42,316 bases of DNA from a bacterium (GCA_018645565.1 JABGWJ010000134.1:1-42316), one strand, 5' to 3'; positions 1-16,319 are shown, numbered from the stretch's first letter. Program-made: numbers and translations. The notes: a model not told the origin generated them from the letters alone.

Positions 1-3000
1 AATAATAATGTTTTATGGGAAGAGTATACTGCTGGCTCAAATGGAAAATTTACGTTAGAGAACCGTATAATCTCTGGTAATTACAGAATTAAAGTATTTG
101 GCAACGGGCATGGTAATAATGGCGAATATGCTGGTAATGGTGGAATAAATATTACTATTAAAGATAAAGATGAGAGTCCAAAAATTAATTTATCAACAGA
201 TGGACTTAGGCCTATACTTGCTGCAAAGCGAGGAGTTCAAAGGGTTTTGGTAAGGTGGAAAGCACTTCCGCACGCAGAATCATACACTGTTTATAAAAAT
301 AATAAACCTGTAGCTGAGAAGATTAAAGAAAATAAATATATTGATAATGTTGCCCCTGGGAAATTTTATGAATACCATGTAAGAGCATGGGATTTGTATG
401 ATTTAGAGGGTCCTGAATCTAATAAAGAAAAGCAAAAATCATCATATCAGTTTCCAACTTTAAAGCCTAGCATTAAAATGGGAGCCCTAAAATCTGAAGG
501 TAGTGGGCGAATTGTTACGCTTGAATGGATTGCAATTCCAAACGTGGAAAAGTATGCTATTTACAGAGACAGTGTTTTAATATCAAAACAAGAAGAATTA
601 ACTTACATCGATTCTTTAGAATGGGGTAAAGAATACAAATTTAGTATTAATTCTATTGATCCAGATAATGATGAAGGTGCAATCTCTGAGGATGTTCTTG
701 TTGCTACTCACCCTGAAGTTTTAACGCCTGAATTGACAGCTTTAGGAAATGTTAATGCTGTAGATTTAAAATGGACTGATTTAAGTCCTGTTGCTACGTT
801 TTATAAAGTATTTCGCAACGGAAGTTATCTTGGAGATTTTGATAATCCATCTTTTTCTGATAACGTTGCTCCAGGAAAAGAATATTGTTATTCAATTTCC
901 GCAGCAGATCAATATGGTACTGAGGGTGAACAATCAACTACTGAATGTGGAAAGGGTCAGTTTGCTCATCCTTCAAATTTTTCCGCTGAAGTAATGCGTA
1001 ATACCGTTCATTTTAAATGGAAATCTGTTGAGGGGGTAAGTGGTTATCATCTTTACAGGAATGGTGAACTCATCCTTACAACTCAAGATTTCGCTTATTT
1101 AGATGAAAATTTAGAATATGATAAAGATTTTCAGTACGATATTGCTTCATATGATCAAGATGGAGACGATGGACCTATAGTGAGCGTAAAAGTACGCACC
1201 CACGAAGAAGTAACTAGTCCAATGATGAGCGGTGCTGCAGATTTAAAGCAAGTTACTTTGACTTGGAATCAACTACCATTGCGTATTGACCATGTATACA
1301 AAGTCTATAGGGATGGACTCCTTCTTGCTGACTTAACAGATACCTTTTATGTTGACATCGTAGATCCAGGGCAATATTACTGCTATAAAATAACGGCTAA
1401 AGACTCTTATGGTACAGAAGGTCCAGCTTCGAATGAAGAATGCTATAAAGTTCTAGTAAATTACCCAAAAGGCCTCACTCTAACAGGGGATGTTAAAAGA
1501 GTCTTGTTTAGATGGAAGGAGATGTTAGGAGCTGTTCAATATAATATTTATTCTCATGATAAAGATAACGGCGAAACAACTTTTATGACTAAAACAACAA
1601 GTAGTTATTACATTCATAAAGGGCTAGAGTTTGACACAGAGTATTGTTACAAAATGTCATCCTTAGATTCCGACGGAGATGAAGGTCCATTATCTCCAGT
1701 AATGTGTGGATGGGTCATGCCTCCTCCTCATTTAACTTTAATTGAAAAGTTTTTTGTAGAGCAATCTGATAACCAAATCTTAGATGGAAAAGAGGATGGT
1801 TTAATTGTCATTAAAATAGTAAACGATGGAAGAAGTCCAGCTAGAGAACTAAAACCATATTTAGAACCATTAAATTTTTCAAATACACCCTCCTTGATTA
1901 TTGATACTGTTGCGACTATTCCTGTCCTTGGAGTTGGTGATTCCATTACAATTAATTTCCCAATTTCAGCAAAATTAAAAATTGAATCTGGTGATAGAAA
2001 TTTTAACATAAGAATTAATGAATATGCAGGCATGGATTTAGATCCAGAACTCATATCTTTCCCCACATTGGCAGTTGTACCGCCGAATCTTGTAATAGCT
2101 GATTTCGCTATTGACAATGAATTTGGACATCACTACATACCAAAAAATGAAACAACTACACTCACTGTTAGATTTCAAAATTTATCAATTGGAAAAACGG
2201 ATACTGCTGTTTTAGCTTTTAGAAGAGGAGAGGGTTTTAAAAATGATTTAGATGAGATAAAGACTTTTGGCTTGGTCCCTGGTGGAGCATGGTTTGATTA
2301 TAGTTTTGAACTGTTAGCAAAAGAAGATCGGTTCACAATCTATTTTGATACATATGATTATTTTGATGTAAGAAAAACAATTCCTATTCATCTTGAAACT
2401 TTAAAACATTACAAGGGTAAAGACGATTTAAAAGCTGTCGATATTGCCATTAATGACTTTTTATCTCCTGGTCAAAAGTCAAAAGACCATCGCTTGTTGT
2501 TAGACCTTCCTGATGCTAATATGAATAGAGATATGATAGGTGTCGTGATTGGGAATAAAAATTTTTGGACTGAAAAAATTCCAGGCAATCAGTCGAGTGA
2601 AGAAGATGTCAAAATTGTAAGGCAGTATTACAATAAACTTTTTGGAATGAAAAATCACCAGATGGTGCCTTCTCAATTTTGGCTTTTTGAAAATGGAGTC
2701 ACGATCAATAACTTTAATGAAATTTTTAACCCAAATCTCGGATTTATTAGAAATAAGATTGAATCAGTAGTAGAATATTCAAACCTCGATACAATTGATT
2801 TAATGTTATACTATTCAGGAGAAGGAACTACTATCGCAGGTGAAAAATGTATTATTCCTTATGATGCTGATGAAAATAAAATTAACTCATTTTTTAAGAT
2901 AAAAGATTTATACTTAATGCTCAAAGAAATTAATAAAATTGATAATATCGGAGATATATTTGTTTTTATGGATGTTGATTTTAATAACTCGGGTTTTAAA

Positions 3001-3375
3001 CAAAACTTTAAAACTGCTGATCTAGATAATCCAAAAAAGAAAAAGAAAAAGAAAAAGAAAAAAGGAGAAGAGCCCAAACTGCCCTTTCCAATGGAGTTAA
3101 TACCCCCCCAGGGTATTACAACTTTTTACGCTGCAAATACTACAGAAAAATCTTATGATCATCCTGATGCAAAAAATGGTATATTTACTTACTATATGTT
3201 AAAAGGTCTTCGAGGTGATGCTGACAATGGTGACAAGGTAATTACCGTTGGTGAATTACATAATTATATACGTAAAAATGTTCTTGATACCACAAAAAAC
3301 CTCTACTCTAGCTTACCTCAAACACCTCAACTATTTACTGAGAATCCTGATAGAGTATTGTTGCGACTACCATAA
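1..3375 (+). CDS. Secreted FN3-repeat / paired beta-sandwich / caspase-fold (peptidase C14-like, dyad-less) protein, 5'-truncated by the window edge
   Basis: Frame 1 has no stop from base 1 to the TTG at 247 used by the ORF track, so the gene starts upstream of the window. It has at least six ~85-aa FN3-like repeats (W...Y-x-[VI]-[YF]-[RK]-[ND]-G ... Y-C-Y ... D-x-x-G-x-E-G). Two CARDB-like beta-sandwich modules follow (track aa ~495-725). The C-terminal domain has caspase-family hallmarks: IGVVIGNKNFW, LYYSGEG, FVFMDVDF, NGIFTYYMLKGLRGDADNGDKVITVGELHNYI, QTPQLF. Stop is TAA. Confidence 0.85.
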   Translation, partial: NNNVLWEEYTAGSNGKFTLENRIISGNYRIKVFGNGHGNNGEYAGNGGINITIKDKDESPKINLSTDGLRPILAAKRGVQRVLVRWKALPHAESYTVYKNNKPVAEKIKENKYIDNVAPGKFYEYHVRAWDLYDLEGPESNKEKQKSSYQFPTLKPSIKMGALKSEGSGRIVTLEWIAIPNVEKYAIYRDSVLISKQEELTYIDSLEWGKEYKFSINSIDPDNDEGAISEDVLVATHPEVLTPELTALGNVNAVDLKWTDLSPVATFYKVFRNGSYLGDFDNPSFSDNVAPGKEYCYSISAADQYGTEGEQSTTECGKGQFAHPSNFSAEVMRNTVHFKWKSVEGVSGYHLYRNGELILTTQDFAYLDENLEYDKDFQYDIASYDQDGDDGPIVSVKVRTHEEVTSPMMSGAADLKQVTLTWNQLPLRIDHVYKVYRDGLLLADLTDTFYVDIVDPGQYYCYKITAKDSYGTEGPASNEECYKVLVNYPKGLTLTGDVKRVLFRWKEMLGAVQYNIYSHDKDNGETTFMTKTTSSYYIHKGLEFDTEYCYKMSSLDSDGDEGPLSPVMCGWVMPPPHLTLIEKFFVEQSDNQILDGKEDGLIVIKIVNDGRSPARELKPYLEPLNFSNTPSLIIDTVATIPVLGVGDSITINFPISAKLKIESGDRNFNIRINEYAGMDLDPELISFPTLAVVPPNLVIADFAIDNEFGHHYIPKNETTTLTVRFQNLSIGKTDTAVLAFRRGEGFKNDLDEIKTFGLVPGGAWFDYSFELLAKEDRFTIYFDTYDYFDVRKTIPIHLETLKHYKGKDDLKAVDIAINDFLSPGQKSKDHRLLLDLPDANMNRDMIGVVIGNKNFWTEKIPGNQSSEEDVKIVRQYYNKLFGMKNHQMVPSQFWLFENGVTINNFNEIFNPNLGFIRNKIESVVEYSNLDTIDLMLYYSGEGTTIAGEKCIIPYDADENKINSFFKIKDLYLMLKEINKIDNIGDIFVFMDVDFNNSGFKQNFKTADLDNPKKKKKKKKKKGEEPKLPFPMELIPPQGITTFYAANTTEKSYDHPDAKNGIFTYYMLKGLRGDADNGDKVITVGELHNYIRKNVLDTTKNLYSSLPQTPQLFTENPDRVLLRLP
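3034..3063 (+). repeat. (AAAAAG)4-AAAAAA simple sequence repeat encoding a Lys10 tract
   Basis: Read directly: cca aaa aag aaa aag aaa aag aaa aag aaa aaa gga, in frame with the 1..3375 CDS (NPKKKKKKKKKKGEEP). Confidence 0.95.
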
Positions 3376-3433
3376 AGTATATTTATATATGGTATTAAAA
3401 TCATAAAGATTTTTTAGCTGGGTTTTGAATACA

Positions 3434-6382
3434 ATGAAATTTCTTCTATTTTTACTATTCATTATTAATATTGGTTTTGCAAAGACTGTTTCAATATCAG
3501 GCAGTATATTTAATAATGAAGCCAAACCATCTCGTAAAGCTGAAGTAGAACTTCTAAATATTTTTGATGAGGTTGTATATGTTGTGAAGACAAATCGAAA
3601 AGGAAGATTTGAGATGCTGGACGTTAACCCAGATTACTACTATCTCAATGTGAATCATCCGAAAGATGGTTCAGTAAGAATTAAAATTAACCCAAGAACA
3701 GAAAGAAATCGTGACCTTATTTTAAGATTATCTCTTCAAAAAGATAAATCTGATGTATTGGTTTACACTTATTCTAATGTAAAACCTATTTTGAAAGATC
3801 CAGTATTAAGGATTAAAGACTTGGTCTCAAATGGTGATGAAAAGTCAATCACTTTAAATTGGAAAAAGTTAAATCAGGCTGTTAAATATAAAATAATTCG
3901 AAATGGTAATGATCTTTTTGAAACATATGGAAATGCATTCATTGATTCTTCCTTATTACCTGGAGTTAAGTATTGCTATAATGTTATAGCAATAGGAAAA
4001 TATAATTTGAGAGGAGTAGAAAGCGAGTCTTCTTGCAATAGTTCTCTTACAATGGCGCCAAAAAATATTTTAGGCGCTGTTAATGAAAATAATATAACTT
4101 TAAAATGGGACAAGGTTAATGGCGCTCAAGAATATATTGTTAAACGAAATGGTCTCAATGTCGGTTTGTCTGATTTAGAGATTTTTAACGATAGTGATTT
4201 GGAATATTCTAGAAAATATTTTTATTCCATTACTTCTTTAAGCTCGATTGGAGTTGAGGGGCTTACATCAGCTCCATTTGAAATAACAACCAGAGCTTAT
4301 GTTGAGCCACCAGCATTATCATCTATTATTCAGCAAACTTCCATTAAGCTAATATGGAATGAGGTAGAATTAGCAGTGAGTTATAACTTATATAGAGATG
4401 GTGGATTAATCGGTAATATAATTGGTAATTCTTACGAAGATAATTGTTATCCAGGGGAAACACATTGTTATCAAATAACAAGCATTGATAAATACAATGT
4501 TGAGAGCGTATTGTCCGGTAAACATTGCTCAAAATTAAATTTAAAATCCCCAACTAGTTTAAACGTAATAGGTGGTATAAAATCTAATCGTTTGAGCTGG
4601 GCAGGAGTTCAAGGTGCATTTGAATATTTGATATTCAAGAGCATTGGGCAAGATTCAACTCTATATCTTAATAAAACAAAAAACACTTCTTTCTTGGATA
4701 ATGATTTAGGGTATAATGAAGATCATTGTTATGTTGTTCAAGGATATGACTCAGAAGGTGATAAGAGTGGTTTTTCAAACATCGTTTGTGGCACAACAAA
4801 TAATCCGCCACTATTAAAAATAAAGAATTTCAAGCTTATTGATGATTCTCAAAACAGTATTCTCGAATCTGAAGAAAATGGTAAGTTGAGGTTTGCTATA
4901 TTAAATGAGGGAGGTAGTCCCTCAAAAAACATAGTTGTAAAAATTGAAAACAATTCATTTGGGAACAGTTTTCTCCAATATGATTCTTTAAAATTGATTG
5001 AGGCAATAAATGTCGACGAAGCTAAATATATTGATTTTATTGTTAAGGCTGATTTAAAAGTAAAAACTGGCGATCTAAAATTTCAAATATTCGCTTTAGA
5101 TGAAAATGGTTTTAAAAATGATAAACCATTTGAATTTATCATTAATACAAAGGCGGTTGAGCAGCCAAATATAATTTTAGCAGACTATTCAATTGAAAAC
5201 AGTTTTGGTACTAATTACATTCCAAAAAATGAAATTGTTAATCTTACACTTAGAATTCAAAATGTGGGTTTAGGGCTTACAGAAAAAGTTGATTTTATGC
5301 TTATTGAGAACCATACTTTTTCAACAGAAGACTTCACAGGATTAATACAAATCAAAAAATTAAATCCTGGAGATTATCAAGACTTAGATATTGGTATAAA
5401 AAGTGAAAAAGACCAGTTTGCAATAAAGTTTAAAACAGTTGATTATCTAGATAATGAAACAGTTCATCAAGTAGATTTAGAGCTAATGAATCATTATAGA
5501 TCAAAGAAAAGTTTAATTAGTCAAGAAATTGGTGCTGTAAATAGCAATCCTTATCCAATAAAAGTTGGTGAGGTAGATGTAGAAAAAAATATTCCAATTG
5601 GAAAAAGAAATGTTAATAATATGGCTATTATACTATCGATTGATGACTACGAAGATACTGATTTAAACATAGCAAAATATTCTGGGCGAGATGGACAAAT
5701 TTTTAGGCTGTATATGCAAAATTTATTTGGAATGGACGATTATCAGCTCTATCCATCAAAAATATGGCAGATGGAGAACGGACCATCTAAGAGTGATTTT
5801 CGCAAAGTATTTGACCCTCATCAAGGTGTAATACGTAATAGAGTGATATCTTCAAGTAAATATTCAGACGTTAATTTTGTAGATATTAATGTTTTCTATT
5901 CTGGATTGGGAGTATGGTTGAATAATAAACCTTATATAATTCCGCAAGATGGTAAAAAAATTGATCCGCTTTCTTACGTAAGTATTGAAGAATTATTAAA
6001 TAGTTTATCATTGTTATCGGTTTTGAAAAACATTAGATCAATTACTGTTTACTTAGACGTTAAATATATCAACTATTTGGAGGCCTCGAAGAATTATCAA
6101 TATCCAGAATTATCAAAAAAAATATCTGTGTTATTATCTTCATCTCCAGGCGAAAATTCTCAAGAAAGTGACGATATGAAACATAGTATCTTTTCGTACT
6201 TTTTGTTTAAAGGTCTAAAAGGCGATGCAATGGGAGAAGATAACATTCTTGAATTAGGAGAACTCGCAGAATATTTATTTAGAAAAATACCGGATTATTC
6301 AGTAAACCTTAAGGAAGGTTTTTTACAAAACTCTGAATTTATCGGTTCAGATTTAAAAAGAGTCTTAATAGATTTAAGATAA
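3434..6382 (+). CDS. Secreted CarboxypepD_reg-like / FN3-repeat / paired beta-sandwich / caspase-fold (dyad-less) protein, paralog of the upstream gene
   Basis: ATG at 3434 gives a classic signal peptide (MKFLLFLLFIINIGFA-KT); the track's TTG at 3425 is an alternative start. The N-terminal region looks like a carboxypeptidase-regulatory domain (GSIFNNEAKPSRKAEVELLN...TNRKGRFEM). Four FN3-like repeats and two beta-sandwich modules are colinear with the upstream protein (PNIILADYSIENSFGTNYIPKNE vs PNLVIADFAIDNEFGHHYIPKNE). The C-terminal caspase-like domain shows MAIILSIDDY, VFYSGLG, VYLDVKY, HSIFSYFLFKGLKGDAMGEDNILELGELAEYL. Confidence 0.85.
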   Translation: MKFLLFLLFIINIGFAKTVSISGSIFNNEAKPSRKAEVELLNIFDEVVYVVKTNRKGRFEMLDVNPDYYYLNVNHPKDGSVRIKINPRTERNRDLILRLSLQKDKSDVLVYTYSNVKPILKDPVLRIKDLVSNGDEKSITLNWKKLNQAVKYKIIRNGNDLFETYGNAFIDSSLLPGVKYCYNVIAIGKYNLRGVESESSCNSSLTMAPKNILGAVNENNITLKWDKVNGAQEYIVKRNGLNVGLSDLEIFNDSDLEYSRKYFYSITSLSSIGVEGLTSAPFEITTRAYVEPPALSSIIQQTSIKLIWNEVELAVSYNLYRDGGLIGNIIGNSYEDNCYPGETHCYQITSIDKYNVESVLSGKHCSKLNLKSPTSLNVIGGIKSNRLSWAGVQGAFEYLIFKSIGQDSTLYLNKTKNTSFLDNDLGYNEDHCYVVQGYDSEGDKSGFSNIVCGTTNNPPLLKIKNFKLIDDSQNSILESEENGKLRFAILNEGGSPSKNIVVKIENNSFGNSFLQYDSLKLIEAINVDEAKYIDFIVKADLKVKTGDLKFQIFALDENGFKNDKPFEFIINTKAVEQPNIILADYSIENSFGTNYIPKNEIVNLTLRIQNVGLGLTEKVDFMLIENHTFSTEDFTGLIQIKKLNPGDYQDLDIGIKSEKDQFAIKFKTVDYLDNETVHQVDLELMNHYRSKKSLISQEIGAVNSNPYPIKVGEVDVEKNIPIGKRNVNNMAIILSIDDYEDTDLNIAKYSGRDGQIFRLYMQNLFGMDDYQLYPSKIWQMENGPSKSDFRKVFDPHQGVIRNRVISSSKYSDVNFVDINVFYSGLGVWLNNKPYIIPQDGKKIDPLSYVSIEELLNSLSLLSVLKNIRSITVYLDVKYINYLEASKNYQYPELSKKISVLLSSSPGENSQESDDMKHSIFSYFLFKGLKGDAMGEDNILELGELAEYLFRKIPDYSVNLKEGFLQNSEFIGSDLKRVLIDLR

Positions 6383-6445
6383 TATGATTTCACTACATAT
6401 AAGATATGTGGACAAGTATATTGTAAAATTTATATATTTATATAG

Positions 6446-6961
6446 ATGAATAGAGGATTTGCTATATTTCTCATTGTTTTAGTAGGCTGTGGCTTATTTG
6501 GTTGGAGAGAGTATGAACGCCAAATGAGAGAAAAAGTGTACAAGAATAGAATTAAATTAAAACTTGCTCAGCAACAACAAAAACAAGATCAATTAGAAGA
6601 ATTAGAAGGAATTGAAAAAGAGGAAAAAACAAAATTTAAAGTACAAATTCCTCATGATGGTAAACCCGAAACAAATACCTATCCAATGATTCTTGATGCC
6701 ACGAGTTCTTTTGACCCGGACCAAGGTGACCGAATAAGGTATGGATGGAAACAGTTGAGTGGTAATAAAATTCGATTAAGACCAAATTCTAGTTCTGGTA
6801 TTGTTTCATTTGAAGGCACGCCTGGAGAATACACTTTTGAACTGACTGTTTCCGATAATTATGGCATGGCTACAGTTATTACTAAAACAGTCAAGATTGA
6901 GAAAGAACCTAATCAAGCTCCAATAGTAGATTTAGAGATTAGGCAAGGAGTCACCGATTAA
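6446..6961 (+). CDS. Lipoprotein with Gln/Glu-rich coiled-coil linker and PKD-like (K319L-type) Ig domain
   Basis: Lipobox FLIVLVGC at the N-terminus. Charged linker KLAQQQQKQDQLEELEGIEKEEK. PKD-type pattern ILDATSSFDPDQGDRIRYGWKQLSGN...GEYTFELTVSDNYG...V.I. Confidence 0.7.
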   Translation: MNRGFAIFLIVLVGCGLFGWREYERQMREKVYKNRIKLKLAQQQQKQDQLEELEGIEKEEKTKFKVQIPHDGKPETNTYPMILDATSSFDPDQGDRIRYGWKQLSGNKIRLRPNSSSGIVSFEGTPGEYTFELTVSDNYGMATVITKTVKIEKEPNQAPIVDLEIRQGVTD

Positions 6962-8001: not shown

Positions 8002-10083
8002 TTACTGAATATCCCCATTAGGGTCTGTTTTTAAATGTAAGATTTTACTTATTCCATTTAAGCTAGTTTCCCCAGTTACTATATATCCGTTATCTTTCGT
8101 TTGATTAATACTTTTAAAAACGTCTACGCTTTCACTACCATACAGTTTTTCCCAAAGTTGATTACCCTGAGCATCATAACAAGCCAACCAGCCTTGATAA
8201 TTATTATTGTTTAGATTTTTTCCAACAACAATATAATTTCCCATGTGATTTTCAATCATATCTAATGCGAAATTATTTCCAGGTATTGATGTTAAAAAGT
8301 TTTGTTCACCATTAGTGTTTGTATTAATAATCCAAGAATTACCACTTTCTTGGTTATTATTATCAGACGAATATCCACAAAAAGTATAGCTTCCATCAGA
8401 TGAATGAATTAATCTTTTTGGATAATCATATATGTCCAAATCCCAAGTTTTTGTCCAAAGTGTATCACCGTTGCTAGATATATTGGTGTCGAATTGTGAT
8501 AATAAAATATTTGATGGAGCGTTAGAAGAGGATTGAGCTAATGATGCAAGAATTACGTAACCATTATCTACTTCAATTATAGATTTCCCATTTTCTATAG
8601 TTCTTTGTGATTGTGGGGCAATTGAAATGTTATACTGATTGTCAATATTACCTAATTGATTAATTTCTAAAATTAATATATCTGGGTGTTGTGCATGATA
8701 CTGCCCAACGATAATATATCCATTTTCAGATGATAATATTATGTCGTTAACCTTATCAAGACCATACGCAAGATTCTCTCCTTCTGAATCGTACCCAATG
8801 ATTGAATTCCATAGTTGAGTACCATCTTGCATCGTTTTTGTTATTCTTATATCAGTATCTTGATTATTGTTAACTATTGTTGATACAAAAACATATCCAT
8901 CATTATCCTGTGTCTCAATTATTTTTACAGGCGTCTCGTCTTGGCTATAATTGTAATAGGTAGATGAAGTTAATATTCCATACCTATTAACACTTTTTAA
9001 CACAATATCACTATTATCCTTTGCAATGATTCTATAATCTTCAGCAGTTGTTTGGATGCCATAGAAGCCGCCAATCGATTCAGCATCGGAACCATAACTT
9101 TGTAAAAATGTAAAGTATATTGGTGTAGCTGATTGCATATTGCTAAATACCTCATATTCCCAATCATCAATTATCGAAACCATAAAGTAATAGGTCGTCC
9201 CATAATCATTTTCAATAAACAAATAGCTTGTATCTTGGCTACTATACGAAGTGTAAATAGCTACTTTATCACTCATGCTAGCATCTAGAGATCTGTAAAG
9301 TTTATAGCTCTTAAAATCTGATGATTGATAGCCTGACCATTTTATTGTGAGCTCATTACCAAAAGAGTCGATCGAATCTAATGAAACTGATTGAGGTATA
9401 GGTCTTACAGTATTTGACATATAACCACCTTTTGTACTCTGATTAAGAGTATCATAAACAATTATTCTGAAATAATTACTTACATGTGGATCAAAGTCAT
9501 CGATAGAATAACTAGAAACAGATTTAATAAAGACACTATCAATAAGAGTATTATTTGAAGTATCATTAATTCCAGAATATAGTTCATATTTTAAGAAATC
9601 TGAATCAGGTGACTCATTCCAAAATACTTGCATTGATTCTTCATCATATATAATTGATGTGATATTGATGGGTAATGGTTTTGGGTCTAAAGAAGATATA
9701 AAAACACTGCTTTTTGAGGAATAATTAAATGAGTCTGAAACAGTTATGTAGAAATAGTTTAGAATCAAAGGATCTACATCTTCTAAAAAATAAGTTATGC
9801 TTTTTACATCGTTGGTGCTAAAGATGAGTGAATAGTCACTTTCATTTGCTACTGTTGAGTGATAAAGGTCATACTGATTAAAATCTGTAGCATTTGATTC
9901 TTCCCAAGAAATATCAAATCCAGCATTATTAAATACTACGGATTCAATCTCAATTGTATCTGGAATAGATAAAGTATTATCAATAGTATAGTCAACGGGA
10001 GGACTCTCAGTACAATTATCATCACAATCACAAATACTTACCGATAGTGAGACTGGCCCATCCGGAAGTTCGTTAGTATTCAA
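8002..10083 (-). CDS. Cell-surface protein: three FN3-like repeats plus C-terminal beta-propeller-like repeats (body of an interrupted lipoprotein gene)
   Basis: Three repeats carry W-x-[EG]-S-x-x-S-D-F-x-x-Y-x-L-Y. The C-terminal half has six units of the type [DN]-G-[YS]-[IV]-[IV/F]-x-G ... G-x-x-L-W (SBBP / PQQ-like propeller pattern). The ORF as tracked has no signal peptide; see the next feature. Confidence 0.75.
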   Translation of the reverse strand: MNTNELPDGPVSLSVSICDCDDNCTESPPVDYTIDNTLSIPDTIEIESVVFNNAGFDISWEESNATDFNQYDLYHSTVANESDYSLIFSTNDVKSITYFLEDVDPLILNYFYITVSDSFNYSSKSSVFISSLDPKPLPINITSIIYDEESMQVFWNESPDSDFLKYELYSGINDTSNNTLIDSVFIKSVSSYSIDDFDPHVSNYFRIIVYDTLNQSTKGGYMSNTVRPIPQSVSLDSIDSFGNELTIKWSGYQSSDFKSYKLYRSLDASMSDKVAIYTSYSSQDTSYLFIENDYGTTYYFMVSIIDDWEYEVFSNMQSATPIYFTFLQSYGSDAESIGGFYGIQTTAEDYRIIAKDNSDIVLKSVNRYGILTSSTYYNYSQDETPVKIIETQDNDGYVFVSTIVNNNQDTDIRITKTMQDGTQLWNSIIGYDSEGENLAYGLDKVNDIILSSENGYIIVGQYHAQHPDILILEINQLGNIDNQYNISIAPQSQRTIENGKSIIEVDNGYVILASLAQSSSNAPSNILLSQFDTNISSNGDTLWTKTWDLDIYDYPKRLIHSSDGSYTFCGYSSDNNNQESGNSWIINTNTNGEQNFLTSIPGNNFALDMIENHMGNYIVVGKNLNNNNYQGWLACYDAQGNQLWEKLYGSESVDVFKSINQTKDNGYIVTGETSLNGISKILHLKTDPNGDIQ

Positions 10084-13346: not shown

Positions 13347-16319
13347 CTAGATTCCAGAGGAATCTTCTTCGTCCATTATCTCTATCGTTTCTGGTTTAGG
13401 AATTATTACCTTTCCTGTTCCAGATAGTCCATCTATAATAGAGCGGAATGGCTCTTTAAATTGATACCAGCTAATATAATTTTTCTCTTCTTTAGGATGA
13501 TTTTTTTCTAGCCATTTTGAATTTAGAAAATCATTTTTATTTTTGTGGTCAATAGTTAAATAGCCAATATGAAGGCTAATAATATTTTGGAAAAAATGAC
13601 TACCAAATGATGGGTCAACTGGAAAATCTTGATGTCCTAGCTCTAAAATCATTTTTGTATTTGATATTTGTTGCCAATTTATTGGTACGCCCAACCATGG
13701 GTCTGAAGAACCCCACCTACCAGGGCCAACAAGAATATAAGGCCTGTTTTTTTCCATTTTATTATTAAAAAATTCTATTTCTTTAGCTATATCAAGCGAT
13801 TTTGAAGGATCGTACTTATCGGGAGATAAGTATAATAAATCTTTTATTTGGTTCGTCGAACCATTTCCTAATGTTATGTGACTAGATGCAAAAATATCTC
13901 TTTTTCTGAAGCTTTCTTCGTCAATAGCCTTATTTGTTGATATCAGCATGGGTTTTATTTGTAATAAGTAAAATTCAGAAGGTTCATTTTTTCGCATATT
14001 TACAGCAAACTCTATTTCAACTGGGCATCCGAGAGCTTGTTTCCCAAGTATAAGTAATTCATTTAGTATCTCACATAAAGGTATAATCTTCCAATCAAGA
14101 ATTGGAGAAAAATTAACTACCCTTGTTCCCTTATAAGATAAAGAATTTCTAAGAATGTTATCATCTGAAGTGATAACTCCTCCTAGCCAGTCTAATGACT
14201 TGTCTATTTCAGCTTTTGAAAGGTTAAGAAGCTTCAAGTCATTTTTTAATTTAAAATTGGCGCCATCCATTTCGAGTGAATAAAAACTTGATTGGGAATT
14301 TACTAAGGTTGATTTTATTGTTGAAAACTGAGGTTTGATGGCAGGGTATTTTGGAGAGATGCCAAGGCATTTTCCGCCGTCTACAATAGTTTTACCAAAA
14401 CCAAGCGCTAAATAGCATACTCCTTCATCTCTCTTCATATATGAAACGGGATAAAAATTTATACTCTTTAATACGCCACTAAATGTTGGGTAAAATCTCC
14501 CCCCAGCGTATTCTTGCCCAGCAATTTCCATTAAAATCACTGCCATTTTTTCTTCTTCTGTTCGATGTGCACTATTTGCAAAATATGATTTTGATTCAAT
14601 ATAAAATATTGATGCGAAAACTAATTTTATTGCATCAATTAATTGATTTATACGGTCTTTAAATATTGCTTGGTTATTTGGTAACATAAATGTTGAATAT
14701 GCCCCAGATAGAGGTTGGTATTGTGAGTCTTCTAACAGACTAGAGGACCTGACGGCTAGAGGATAATTACAATTTTTTAAAAATGCTTCTACCTTAAGTG
14801 TTAGCTCCATAGACAACCGGCTTTTCAAAAACATTGTCTCAACATCTTTATTATTATTAGCCTTTAAGGCATTATCCCAAAGTTTATTATCTTTCATAAA
14901 ACGATCAAATTCTTCTGTGCCGATTATTGCTGTCTTTGGAATTTTTACATTTATGTTTTTGAATTTATTATTTATGCCTGACTGAATTATCATATCTTTC
15001 GCAAATGCTAAACCGCGTGCCTTACCACCTAAAGACCCTCCGCACATTTTATAGAACCTAGAACTTTTACCATTTTCAGGAGAAAAGTCAGATACTTCAC
15101 CAAACTTATGTTGTTGCTTTAAATTATTGATTTCTTCAATAATCATGGCTCTTATATCTTCTTTGTTAGAAAATTTTTGAACATTAATCTTTCTAAGTTG
15201 TGTTGCTAAATCAAAATTGGATCTAGCAGCAACCCAATTTGAAAAGTGGTTGCTTTTACCATGTAAAATAATGGTTGCTATTGGCACTGTTTTTATGCCT
15301 TCAATTAGATCTTCAATGTTCGTTGCTTTTAGTAATCCATTACCTTGATTATCCTTAAAAATAAAATCACCAAATCCAAAATTGATTAGCATGAAATTTC
15401 TTAAATCATTTAAAAGTGTGTTAGACTCTTTATGTAAAAAATCAGTTCCTAACTCTTTCGCTAATTTTCTATTAGAATTATCTGTTGATTGTAGCATTAT
15501 CGGCATCGACGGATGCTTTTCTCTGATAGATTTTGCAAATCTAGCTCCAGCTTTTGAGTCTTTTTTTCCATTATTCAAAAATTTAACATCTGATATTATT
15601 CCAACAATATTATCGCCATATTTATTCGAAAATTTTTCAGCAGTTTCAAAATTTGGTGTAAGTAATACTTTGATTCTTCCTCTTAAGTGCATTGATTTAT
15701 AAGTAGAACTAAAAGTTTTTTTCATAAGGGTTTTTGTAAGAGAAACTATCTCCCGATAAATAAGTGGAAGCAGTATTGAATACATTCGAGGGGAGTCTTC
15801 AATAAGAATTATTGCGCGCACATTACCTTGAATAATATCTTTTTCAGCATTTTTCCTATCTTCAACATATTTAATGATTGCTGGAAAAACGGAAGCGTCA
15901 CCTGACCATATAAAGATTCTGTTAATTGAACTCGGTGAAATTCGTGGAGTGAATTGTTTTATTTCTGTTTCATCAAAAGCTAGTAAGATTACTGGCATAT
16001 TCGGATATTTCTTTTTTATAGACTTGCCAAGTGAAATCGGATCAGTATCTTCAATTCTTAGCATAACAATTACTAAATCAAAATTATTTTTTGATAAATC
16101 GTTCATTGCTGAAGCTGCCGTAGAGGATCTAGTCACTCTAGGAGCATAATTAAAATTCATCCCGATGTATTCTGTCATAATTTGTTCAGTCAATCCGCCA
16201 TCCTCTTCAAGTATAAAAGCATCATACGGGCTAGCGACTAATAGAATTTCATGAACTCTGTGTACCATCAGCTCATTAAAATTATCGCTATGACTAATAT
16301 TGAAAGAGTTTTCTTTCAA
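13347..16319 (-). CDS. Pseudo-receiver + receiver (REC) + PEP/pyruvate-binding (PPDK_N ATP-grasp) domain protein of unknown function
   Basis: REC-like 1 is aa ~23-125 (HEILLVASPYD..., DLVIVMLRI). REC 2 is aa ~168-300 (AIILIEDSP, GIISDVKF, PIMLQS, FLHKES). PPDK_N-type motifs are CGGSLGGKARGLAF and ...PVEIEFAVN...FYLLQIKPM. The conserved C-terminal module has GPGRWGSSDPWLGVPINW. TTG start at 16319; an alternative ATG is at 16268. Confidence 0.8.
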   Translation of the reverse strand: MKENSFNISHSDNFNELMVHRVHEILLVASPYDAFILEEDGGLTEQIMTEYIGMNFNYAPRVTRSSTAASAMNDLSKNNFDLVIVMLRIEDTDPISLGKSIKKKYPNMPVILLAFDETEIKQFTPRISPSSINRIFIWSGDASVFPAIIKYVEDRKNAEKDIIQGNVRAIILIEDSPRMYSILLPLIYREIVSLTKTLMKKTFSSTYKSMHLRGRIKVLLTPNFETAEKFSNKYGDNIVGIISDVKFLNNGKKDSKAGARFAKSIREKHPSMPIMLQSTDNSNRKLAKELGTDFLHKESNTLLNDLRNFMLINFGFGDFIFKDNQGNGLLKATNIEDLIEGIKTVPIATIILHGKSNHFSNWVAARSNFDLATQLRKINVQKFSNKEDIRAMIIEEINNLKQQHKFGEVSDFSPENGKSSRFYKMCGGSLGGKARGLAFAKDMIIQSGINNKFKNINVKIPKTAIIGTEEFDRFMKDNKLWDNALKANNNKDVETMFLKSRLSMELTLKVEAFLKNCNYPLAVRSSSLLEDSQYQPLSGAYSTFMLPNNQAIFKDRINQLIDAIKLVFASIFYIESKSYFANSAHRTEEEKMAVILMEIAGQEYAGGRFYPTFSGVLKSINFYPVSYMKRDEGVCYLALGFGKTIVDGGKCLGISPKYPAIKPQFSTIKSTLVNSQSSFYSLEMDGANFKLKNDLKLLNLSKAEIDKSLDWLGGVITSDDNILRNSLSYKGTRVVNFSPILDWKIIPLCEILNELLILGKQALGCPVEIEFAVNMRKNEPSEFYLLQIKPMLISTNKAIDEESFRKRDIFASSHITLGNGSTNQIKDLLYLSPDKYDPSKSLDIAKEIEFFNNKMEKNRPYILVGPGRWGSSDPWLGVPINWQQISNTKMILELGHQDFPVDPSFGSHFFQNIISLHIGYLTIDHKNKNDFLNSKWLEKNHPKEEKNYISWYQFKEPFRSIIDGLSGTGKVIIPKPETIEIMDEEDSSGI

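Follow-up and report, generated by a model that had tools for sequence, protein, structure and literature searches.

A predicted secreted protein of Marinimicrobia ends in a conserved pseudo-orthocaspase domain with Glu and Asp in place of the catalytic His and Cys

We analysed a 42,316-nt stretch of bacterial DNA (GCA_018645565.1 JABGWJ010000134.1:1-42316, hereafter the window) and found that the open reading frame at its 5' end encodes a large protein, protein 1, whose C-terminal caspase-fold domain carries Glu941 at the position of the catalytic His and Asp993 at the position of the catalytic Cys. The substituted site is maintained and has not decayed, and the domain is under strong purifying selection. 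Our preferred reading, which we hold to be quite probable from sequence comparison and modelling, is that the domain is a pseudo-orthocaspase without proteolytic activity, in which the former active site, now remodelled and acidic, would bind a ligand. This Glu/Asp pseudo-caspase is an undescribed form of a known kind of protein, the pseudo-orthocaspases. The features discussed below are as follows, with residue numbers counted from the visible open reading frame of protein 1.

1..3375, + strand: protein 1, its 5' part cut off by the window edge, with 1124 of about 1600 aa encoded
2536..3375, + strand: pseudo-orthocaspase (Peptidase_C14-fold) domain of protein 1, from Pfam PF00656, the AF2 model and Foldseek
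2605..2607, + strand: Asp869, at the first S1-pocket Asp position (R-D-A in active relatives), from the alignment
2821..2823, + strand: Glu941 (GAA), at the catalytic His position (SGHG to SGEG), within LMLYYSGEGTT
2971..2973, + strand: Asp991, the kept Asp of the D-x-C motif, counterpart of the second S1-pocket Asp of metacaspases, from motif position
2977..2979, + strand: Asp993 (GAT), at the catalytic Cys position (DAC to DVD), within IFVFMDVDFNN
3034..3063, + strand: poly-Lys tract of ten Lys, alternating AAA/AAG, in the loop after the former Cys strand, from the alignment
3217..3237, + strand: DADNGDK loop, invariant in the clade and conserved in active relatives too
3425..6382, + strand: protein 2, tandem paralog of 985 aa, likely start ATG at 3434, 29% identity to protein 1
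6446..6961, + strand: PKD protein of 171 aa with a hydrophobic N-terminal stretch (Pfam K319L-like_PKD)

The visible part of protein 1 consists of a partial CarboxypepD_reg-like domain, about seven FN3-like repeats, two CARDB-like Ig domains and the C-terminal pseudo-caspase domain. Since full-length orthologs are about 1600 aa long and the reading frame is open at the 5' end of the window, about 480 N-terminal residues are missing. The full-length architecture comprises a signal peptide, two CarboxypepD_reg domains, about 11 FN3 repeats, two Ig-like domains and the C-terminal caspase-like module; in one full-length ortholog of 1602 aa (L003:6128-10933) a signal peptide, CarboxypepD_reg, FN3 repeats and Peptidase_C14 were detected. 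Protein 1 is conserved across marine Marinimicrobia (SAR406) and, as judged from the signal peptides on this ortholog and on protein 2, it is a secreted protein. Its destination may be the periplasm or the cell surface; nothing akin to a C-terminal sorting domain was noticed.

The preliminary description of this DNA had assigned a caspase fold to the domain, and the assignment stands. Pfam PF00656 (Peptidase_C14) matches residues 848-1113 (nt 2542-3339) with 35.7 bits against a gathering cut-off of 21.4, and the same domain of the L003 ortholog scores 38.4 bits in Pfam. Sequence searches of the PDB with the single domain or with an ortholog profile found no caspase-family chain and gave chance matches only (E=0.4-0.75), so the fold was assigned via structure prediction. 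The AF2 model, built on a 34-sequence alignment that includes His/Cys relatives, has a pLDDT of 88 and a pTM of 0.87. A Foldseek search of this model against the PDB gave 173 matches at E<=1e-3, and all of the 50 listed belong to clan CD, among them MALT1, metacaspases 4 and 9, CED-3, caspase-9 and legumains, with query TM-scores of 0.48-0.59. An earlier AF2 run on a shallow alignment of 17 close orthologs (pLDDT 57.7) had already given clan CD matches in Foldseek, with low TM-scores. The metacaspase matches speak to the fold alone, and the closest sequence relatives are bacterial CARDB-C14 proteins, not metacaspases; identity to the His/Cys relatives is about 30%. Membership of the NCBIfam subfamily caspase_w_EACC1 was rejected, as the matches are partial and below threshold (22 bits against a cut-off of 140). 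An hhalign comparison of the A1 and A3 alignments was set aside as evidence because A3 includes the A1 sequences and is hence not independent.

To place the catalytic columns, 169 database relatives were aligned to the family profile, and a MAFFT alignment agrees with it at the dyad columns. His and Cys occupy these columns in 111 relatives (YYSGHGA and TVFLDACFSG), Glu and Asp in 25 orthologs, and Leu with Lys, Asp or Thr in the protein-2 clade. The two replacements had been read from the window in the preliminary description, and the codons are indeed as it gave them. It had also held that the non-catalytic signatures are kept, and all of them align with the His/Cys relatives: IGVVIGN with AIAIIIGIEDY, NGIFTYYMLKGLRGDADNGDK..ITVGEL with HGLFTYFLLKGLxGxADxxxDKxITxxEL, and QTPQLF with EQTPxL. 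The changes relative to active relatives extend around the former dyad, from HGAP to EGTT, from CFSG to DFNN and from KHG to xNG. A genuine His/Cys dyad located elsewhere in the domain and missed through misalignment was rejected on the profile and residue-level alignments, and we give it virtually no credence: the flanking motifs YYSG-x-G..IPYD and F-x-D-x-x-F align unambiguously at about 30% identity. The sole Cys of the domain, C950, is retained in 16 of the 25 database orthologs and replaced by Val in the other 9; the active relatives have Tyr or Phe in its column. None of the three His residues lies in a dyad column, and none is invariant. Within the domain no substitute His or Cys fits the alignment and no Cys is conserved; the dead active site proposed earlier thus survives its alignment check. 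With Glu for the general-base His and Asp for the nucleophile Cys, the domain is predicted to be unable to act as a cysteine protease.

Next, we examined conservation in species-level Marinimicrobia genomes, where 37 of 42 matching loci gave alignable orthologs with pairwise identities of 44-96% (mean 58%). Glu is found at the His position in 37/37 orthologs, encoded by GAA in 19 and GAG in 18 (synonymous turnover), and Asp at the Cys position in 37/37, encoded by GAT in 35 and GAC in 2. Invariant columns number 63 of the 330 in the domain; the unbroken invariant blocks are GEGTT, FMDVDFNN and ADNGDK, and the two that hold the former dyad are among the longest. Pairwise dN/dS of the protein 1 domain is 0.03-0.14 (pairs with dS of 0.2-0.45), which bears out the earlier suggestion that the domain is kept under selection. 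The same replacements in 37 species indicate that the pseudo-protease domain is strictly maintained. These codons and dN/dS values, together with a reading frame that is unbroken in all 37 aligned orthologs, none of which retains SGHG/DAC, contradict recent decay or a pseudogene as well as a mistake of sequencing or assembly at either codon; retention of SGHG/DAC in orthologs had been raised in the preliminary description as the check on such events. Furthermore, the window DNA is identical in contigs from four independent DNA metagenomes over 2500-3062 and 3035-3400, and at least 20 metagenomes contain the sequence with a word match of about 100%. Metatranscriptome contigs also cover the protein 1 domain, these being assembled RNA contigs in which DNA carry-over is possible. 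Pseudogene and error were therefore ruled out, and we regard the chance that either explains the two codons as negligible.

The gene directly downstream encodes protein 2, which aligns with protein 1 over 910 aa at 29% identity (E=2e-120) and contains a signal peptide, CarboxypepD_reg, FN3 repeats, Ig domains and a second pseudo-caspase domain (about 5618-6379). Two short insertions, VPSQ and xSVVEYS, are common to the two proteins. The dyad positions of protein 2 are Leu828 (5906-5908) and Lys880 (6062-6064); among its orthologs the His position is Tyr in 20, Leu in 14 and Phe in 1, and the Cys position is Thr in 23, Lys in 10, Arg in 1 and Ser in 1. Ortholog dN/dS for protein 2 is 0.04-0.12. 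Protein 2 is thus as constrained overall as protein 1 but variable at the dyad, which indicates that the identity of Glu and Asp in protein 1 is itself selected. Protein 2 follows protein 1 directly in every locus with sufficient downstream DNA and the tandem is conserved across the phylum; the gene order kept in the clade is protein 1, protein 2, an optional gene, the PKD protein and a ROK kinase. The PKD protein has the deepest RNA contig coverage of the cluster, and its hydrophobic N-terminal stretch is possibly a membrane anchor. Given the conserved synteny, protein 2 and the PKD protein are candidate partners of protein 1. A third candidate is the secreted His/Cys-type CARDB-C14 protein discussed below. 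The paralog next door, the phylum-wide tandem and the poly-Lys tract described below had no place in the preliminary description.

Pseudo-orthocaspases are defined as prokaryotic p20-domain homologs whose His-Cys dyad carries a substitution at one or both positions; they make up about 9% of bacterial caspase homologs, most without an assigned function, and 90% of those known are in Alphaproteobacteria and Cyanobacteria (PMC6426788). The protein 1 domain falls within this definition, with both dyad residues substituted and a variant conserved in its clade (37/37 aligned orthologs). Like the pseudo-orthocaspases of Klemencic et al. 2019 (PMC6426788; for example Synechocystis SyOC, PMC7889975), it is a p20-type Peptidase_C14 domain with both dyad residues replaced, a retained fold and D-x-C Asp, conservation of the variant in a clade, and a presumed non-proteolytic binding role. 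The Glu/Asp replacement differs from the dyad types named in the available text of PMC6426788 (YS, YN, YA, FS, YG, QC, HA). In Cyanobacteria and Alphaproteobacteria, home to nearly all known examples, the substitutions are of the Tyr/Ser kind, with YS and YN types. Relative to the pseudo-orthocaspases described there, the protein 1 domain is also distinct in its Marinimicrobia host, in its place at the C-terminus of a secreted protein of about 1600 aa that is rich in FN3, in its tandem with a second pseudo-variant, in its poly-Lys linker and in a first pocket Asp that is mostly Asn in the clade. Literature searches on Marinimicrobia with caspase and on orthocaspase with fibronectin type III found nothing relevant.

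The same source states that pseudo-orthocaspases retain an acidic pocket thought to bind basic substrates, with both S1-pocket Asp residues highly conserved (PMC6426788). Asp991, equivalent to TbMC2 Asp211 according to that text and motif position, does not vary in either pseudo-caspase clade (Glu/Asp or protein 2) or among the His/Cys relatives. The first S1-pocket position is Asp in 109/111 His/Cys relatives; in the Glu/Asp clade it is Asn in 27/37 and Asp in 10/37. This pocket residue is thus not strictly kept, and the pocket is not of the canonical basic-residue type. The D-x-D-x-G-D pattern of the DADNGDK loop suggests an EF-hand-like cation loop.

In sequence, the nearest relatives are secreted CARDB-Peptidase_C14 proteins of the His/Cys type, about 30% identical across the full domain; they comprise the P0175 cluster (one member labelled Candidatus Marinimicrobia) and P0035-P0061. 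They share with protein 1 a C-terminal arrangement in which C14 comes after an Ig-like (CARDB) domain, as well as the G-x-AD-x-x-DK-ITxxEL loop and the C-terminal QTP..L motif. They differ in keeping YYSGHGAP and DACFSG, in having a conserved Arg and no poly-Lys in their short linker, in an N-terminal Laminin_G_3 or WD40, and in lacking the VPSQ and xSVVEYS insertions. For a His/Cys-type relative beside a reverse transcriptase, targeting by a diversity-generating retroelement is unsupported, as no template/variable repeat pair was found in L044:1-4400.

More distant parallels are found in eukaryotes. In Trypanosoma brucei, an active paralog processes the clan-CD pseudopeptidase TbMCA4 (metacaspase 4), which the cell releases (PMC3220528), and an exported dead domain coexisting with active paralogs resembles the situation proposed here. 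By analogy, the dead paralog might be processed by, or interact with, a live one. TbMCA4 differs in being eukaryotic and lipid-anchored, with only Cys replaced (by Ser), no FN3 stalk and no poly-Lys. In vertebrates, cFLIP is a caspase-fold protein without the catalytic dyad that acts by pairing with caspase-8, and proteins 1 and 2 could conceivably pair in a similar way. The kinship of cFLIP to protein 1 is one of fold only, and it differs in being intracellular and carrying death-effector domains; proteins 1 and 2, moreover, are both dead.

From its conservation we infer that the pocket binds a ligand. The former catalytic cleft would have become a fixed polar, acidic pocket formed by Glu941, Asp993 and Asp991 together with the EGTT, DFNN and xNG changes, and it would bind without cleaving, the best candidates for the ligand being a cation or a basic (Lys/Arg) side chain. 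The domain would then sit at the tip of a long FN3 stalk as a head for recognition or regulation, and would probably act together with protein 2. In most orthologs the poly-Lys tract comprises 4-17 Lys (L036 has (KGK)n), and the region is disordered in the AF2 model. Such a Lys-rich loop may act as a built-in pseudo-substrate; alternatively, it may be a handle for the active secreted orthocaspase of the phylum or an anchor to anionic surfaces. A role of the tract as a frameshift or phase-variation switch is unsupported: length differences between species are in frame, AAG codons break the A-runs, and no indels were seen in the DNA or RNA contigs.

A different account, compatible with the ligand-binding explanation, is that the poly-Lys loop is presented as substrate or decoy to the Arg/Lys-specific secreted His/Cys-type orthocaspase of the phylum, protein 1 being processed in trans (as TbMCA4 is by TbMCA3) or titrating the enzyme. 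The disordered tract lies at or beside the linker Arg (LLAxxR|P) of the active relatives, but the gap falls in a low-similarity linker and its placement is approximate. The tract is kept in most orthologs, with a codon choice that preserves the Lys run and breaks the A-runs: AAG accounts for 54% of tract codons versus 27% elsewhere in the same reading frames (Fisher p=6e-29), and the longest A-run in the tract is 5-9 nt. A secreted His/Cys-type CARDB-C14 protein does exist in Marinimicrobia, and TbMCA4 provides a precedent (PMC3220528). However, L022 and L024 have an acidic linker and no poly-Lys, yet they keep Glu/Asp and the rest of the domain, so docking of poly-Lys into the Glu/Asp pocket is hardly the sole reason for the Glu/Asp conservation, and the account leaves the invariance of Glu and Asp unexplained. 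We consider it rather unlikely as the principal explanation.

A further alternative is a re-tooled enzyme, in which the Glu941/Asp993 carboxylate pair catalyses with or without a bound metal, as an acid/base hydrolase (glycosidase-like or of the glutamic/aspartic type) or a metal-dependent enzyme. The pair is invariant in protein 1 and the same positions drift in the paralog, and the invariant polar neighbours (Thr-Thr, Asn-Asn, Asp) are easier to reconcile with new chemistry, or with a site for a metal or sugar, than with mere loss; invariant polar residues are, however, expected equally of a binding site. In caspase-fold structures a few angstroms separate the His and Cys, which lie at the ends of adjacent strands, and such an arrangement would suit a carboxylate pair. 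Against catalysis, the domain has no match to a glycoside hydrolase or other enzyme family, and no caspase-fold enzyme with a Glu/Asp dyad was found in the papers and databases consulted, nor is one known to us. We judge a re-tooled enzyme improbable. It is likewise a long shot that Glu941/Asp993 with Asp991, Thr-Thr and Asn-Asn would form a working carboxylate catalytic or metal centre at the tip of the FN3 stalk, and just as doubtful that this centre would be, for example, a hydrolase of marine glycans or another non-peptide substrate; if true, this would make it the first clan-CD fold whose active site uses no thiol.

Returning to the ligand-binding pseudo-orthocaspase, the paralog serves as a natural control: a fixed acidic pair in protein 1 set against drifting positions in protein 2 argues for a newly acquired function at the site and not for loss alone. 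That the protein is secreted, very large and modular suggests a function outside the cell or in its envelope rather than in cell-death signalling within the cell. Marinimicrobia/SAR406 is an uncultured lineage widespread in the ocean, and we know of no experimental study of its envelope and surface proteins. The gene is conserved and, as judged from assembled RNA contigs, transcribed across this phylum. The domain of about 280 aa, confidently modelled, is a concrete and easily expressed target for the function of a dead caspase fold, and through the poly-Lys loop its possible connection with an active orthocaspase from this phylum can be put to the test.

Protein 1 is read in frame 1 from base 1 of the window to the stop codon at 3373-3375; it is cut by the 5' end of the window, which leaves 1124 residues in view. 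Complete orthologs reach about 1600 aa and consist of a signal peptide, two CarboxypepD_reg domains, many FN3 repeats, two Ig-like domains, and a C-terminal C14 domain. The Pfam Peptidase_C14 match in protein 1 covers residues 848-1113 (nt 2542-3339) with 35.7 bits against a gathering score of 21.4. The preliminary description had proposed that this caspase-like domain lost both catalytic residues (SGHG to SGEG, DAC to DVD) while its fold was kept under selection. It had correctly placed the Glu codon (GAA, 2821-2823, within LMLYYSGEGTT) and the Asp codon (GAT, 2977-2979, the second Asp of IFVFMDVDFNN).

Since PDB sequence searches with the domain gave nothing useful, homologs were used to place the dyad. 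A word-indexed search returned 19 close metagenomic homologs, and all those that span the motifs carry SGEGTT and FMDVDFNN. Among 1.84 billion representative proteins a profile search detected 13,671 relatives at E<=1e-3, and the family-profile alignment took in the top 150 representatives, the earlier matches, and both window proteins. Its dyad columns hold His/Cys in 111 relatives (YYSGHGA, TVFLDACFSG), Glu/Asp in 25 protein-1 orthologs, and Leu with Lys, Asp, or Thr in the protein-2 clade. MAFFT alignment of the domain with His/Cys relatives (about 30% identity) gave the identical residue-for-residue register, so both methods put Glu at the catalytic His and Asp at the nucleophile Cys; the non-catalytic signatures said to be well kept are common to the active relatives in the same alignment. 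A substitute dyad elsewhere in the domain was not seen: the sole Cys, C950, is Cys or Val among the 25 database orthologs and Tyr/Phe in active relatives, and none of the three His residues falls at a dyad column. Misalignment was excluded on these grounds. The domain thus falls within the definition of a pseudo-orthocaspase and outside the catalytic criteria of an active C14 peptidase, and from its sequence it is predicted to be unable to act as a cysteine protease.

A model of the domain from a shallow alignment was poor (pLDDT 57.7). After His/Cys relatives were added to the alignment the model reached pLDDT 88 and pTM 0.87, with disorder confined to a linker (about residues 160-185 of the model) that includes a poly-Lys tract. 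Foldseek comparison of the model with the PDB gave 173 matches at E<=1e-3, and the best 50 of these were all clan-CD peptidases; MALT1 paracaspase, Arabidopsis metacaspases 4 and 9, CED-3, caspase-9, and legumains were among the matches listed. Together with the Pfam score above gathering, this bears out the proposed conservation of the caspase fold.

A scan for the FMDVDFN pattern in one genome per GTDB species found 42 loci, which belong to Marinimicrobia/Neomarinimicrobiota (SAR406) wherever named, the rest being unclassified marine MAGs. In the 37 alignable orthologs (pairwise identity mean 58%, minimum 44%) the Glu941 position is invariant (37/37; codons GAA 19, GAG 18), as is the Asp993 position (37/37; GAT 35, GAC 2), and a retained SGHG/DAC was not seen in any of them. 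Of 330 columns 63 are invariant, with GEGTT, FMDVDFNN, and ADNGDK as the longest unbroken stretches; constraint on the domain, as judged from this alignment, is tightest at the former active site. Pairwise NG86 dN/dS is 0.03-0.14 across unsaturated ortholog pairs (dS 0.2-0.45), and 0.071 and 0.079 for the window against the orthologous loci L002 and L003, in agreement with the purifying selection proposed earlier. At least 20 marine metagenomes contain the window sequence at about 100% word match, contigs of four studies agree base for base over 2500-3062 and 3035-3400, and more than 15 metatranscriptome runs contain the domain. Contigs from RNA runs, which can include DNA carry-over, span the domain, protein 2, and a downstream PKD gene. 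Recent decay and sequencing error, like misalignment, are excluded because the orthologs, the dN/dS values, the independent contigs, and the alignments concur.

Protein 1 is followed by a paralog and a short PKD gene:
3425-6382, forward strand (likely start ATG 3434): protein 2, paralog of protein 1 (29% identity over 910 aa, E=2e-120)
5906-5908 and 6062-6064, forward strand: dyad positions Leu828 and Lys880 of protein 2, from the alignment
6446-6961, forward strand: 171-aa protein with a hydrophobic N-terminal stretch, a Gln/Glu-rich segment, and a PKD domain

Protein 2 has the same architecture as protein 1 with a second pseudo-caspase domain, though a Pfam C14 search of it gave no match at E<=1 despite clear homology to protein 1. 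Wherever a locus includes sufficient downstream DNA, it lies directly after protein 1, and across the clade, locus L001 included, the genes come in the order protein 1, protein 2, (optional gene), 171-aa PKD protein, ROK kinase. Two short insertions are common to proteins 1 and 2 and absent from His/Cys relatives, which suggests a single ancestral pseudo-caspase that was duplicated later. Purifying selection acts on protein 2 as well (dN/dS 0.04-0.12), and its orthologs vary at the His position (Tyr20/Leu14/Phe1) and at the Cys position (Thr23/Lys10/Arg1/Ser1). Because the protein-2 dyad varies under similar constraint, the strict Glu/Asp of protein 1 looks positively required, beyond "anything but His/Cys". 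That this pair has been converted into an active site based on carboxylates or a metal, in place of a dead protease, we consider improbable.

The synteny of the PKD gene after protein 2 is kept throughout the clade, and the hydrophobic stretch of its product is possibly a membrane anchor. A promoter-like site precedes the gene at 6409-6438, and its RNA contig depth is the highest of the cluster (82.7 vs about 20 in run X25). The PKD protein could be an anchor or partner of proteins 1 and 2.

Other residues lining the former cleft changed jointly and were then fixed: HGAP became EGTT, CFSG became DFNN, and KHG(L)FTY became xNG(I)FTY. The D-x-C Asp is retained throughout; at the position of the first S1-pocket Asp, 27/37 orthologs have Asn. 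The linker carries one further feature:
3034-3063, forward strand: poly-Lys tract (K10) after the former Cys strand, in alternating AAA/AAG codons

The tract is an insertion at or beside the conserved Arg of the LLAxxR|P linker of active relatives (gap placement is approximate). It is 4-17 Lys long in most orthologs and (KGK)n in locus L036. The two most divergent genomes (L022:10949-14293 and L024:10991-14332) have an acidic linker in its place; their protein 2 exceeds the usual length by about 120 aa (1114-1115 aa) and has YFNGLG at the His motif, and the two proteins may have changed together in this lineage. Because both genomes keep Glu/Asp, docking of the tract would not fully account for Glu/Asp conservation. 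AAG makes up 54% of Lys codons in the tracts vs 27% elsewhere in the same ORFs (about 2-fold; Fisher p=6e-29, which overstates independence as the sequences are phylogenetically related), and A-runs within tracts are 5-9 nt. This codon use fits selection for the Lys run in the protein with long homopolymers avoided. Length changes stay in frame and apparently arise when units of 6 or 9 nt slip. Both metagenome and metatranscriptome assemblies are interrupted at the tract, where unrelated low-complexity contigs pile up and depth spikes. One metatranscriptome contig (run X27) stops at 3063, where the tract ends on its 3' side, and then runs on into A residues only (a loose end of 12 nt), which could be a low-complexity assembly artefact or transcript slippage/polyadenylation.

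Two other genes in the window drew attention:
8002-10083, reverse strand: 693-aa ORF, Pfam-unmatched, beside the ROK gene and conserved in closer relatives
13347-16319, reverse strand: 990-aa protein with an N-terminal response-regulator receiver and PPDK_N (PEP-utilising, ATP-grasp)

The 693-aa ORF starts with repeated units of about 100 aa, FN3- or Ig-like, and may be another large envelope protein. The receiver and PPDK_N fusion looked uncommon.

Pseudo-orthocaspases are a recognised group: a survey of 9,994 bacterial orthocaspases counted 858 without the dyad, of which 90% came from Alphaproteobacteria and Cyanobacteria, and their fold and acidic pocket are conserved (PMC6426788). In the portion of the survey consulted the substitution types are YS, YN, YA, FS, YG, QC, and HA, with neither a Glu/Asp dyad nor a mention of Marinimicrobia (PMC6426788). 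A literature search found no paper tying Marinimicrobia to caspases, or orthocaspases to FN3. We regard the domain as a pseudo-orthocaspase that differs from those known in its fixed acidic dyad, its poly-Lys linker, its giant secreted FN3 architecture, its tandem with a drifting-dyad paralog, and its phylum. TbMCA4, an exported pseudopeptidase that is processed by an active paralog, offers a precedent (PMC3220528). A candidate active partner is present in the phylum, because a cluster of secreted His/Cys-type CARDB-C14 proteins (732 aa) has a member labelled Candidatus Marinimicrobia; the partnership would hold only where such a protein shares a genome with the pair. On three independent contigs (L044:315-4232, also L045 and L046) the Marinimicrobia gene of this type is immediately preceded by a PDDEXK_3 nuclease-like gene, two tiny ORFs, and a gene for a reverse transcriptase (RVT_1) of 349 aa. 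In L044:1-4400 a template/variable repeat pair was not found, only 51-nt repeats at 1391-1999; a retroelement or defence-type module may be linked to the caspase gene.

The loss of the dyad noted in the preliminary description is confirmed and its interpretation is supported: the domain has kept its fold under tight constraint, its gene is transcribed, and a signal peptide marks the protein as secreted. The former catalytic cleft would have become a polar, acidic putative binding pocket for a cation or basic group, and the domain may serve as a recognition or regulatory head at the tip of the FN3 stalk, probably in concert with protein 2. Three roles are conceivable for the poly-Lys loop: pseudo-substrate, electrostatic anchor, or handle for an active orthocaspase.
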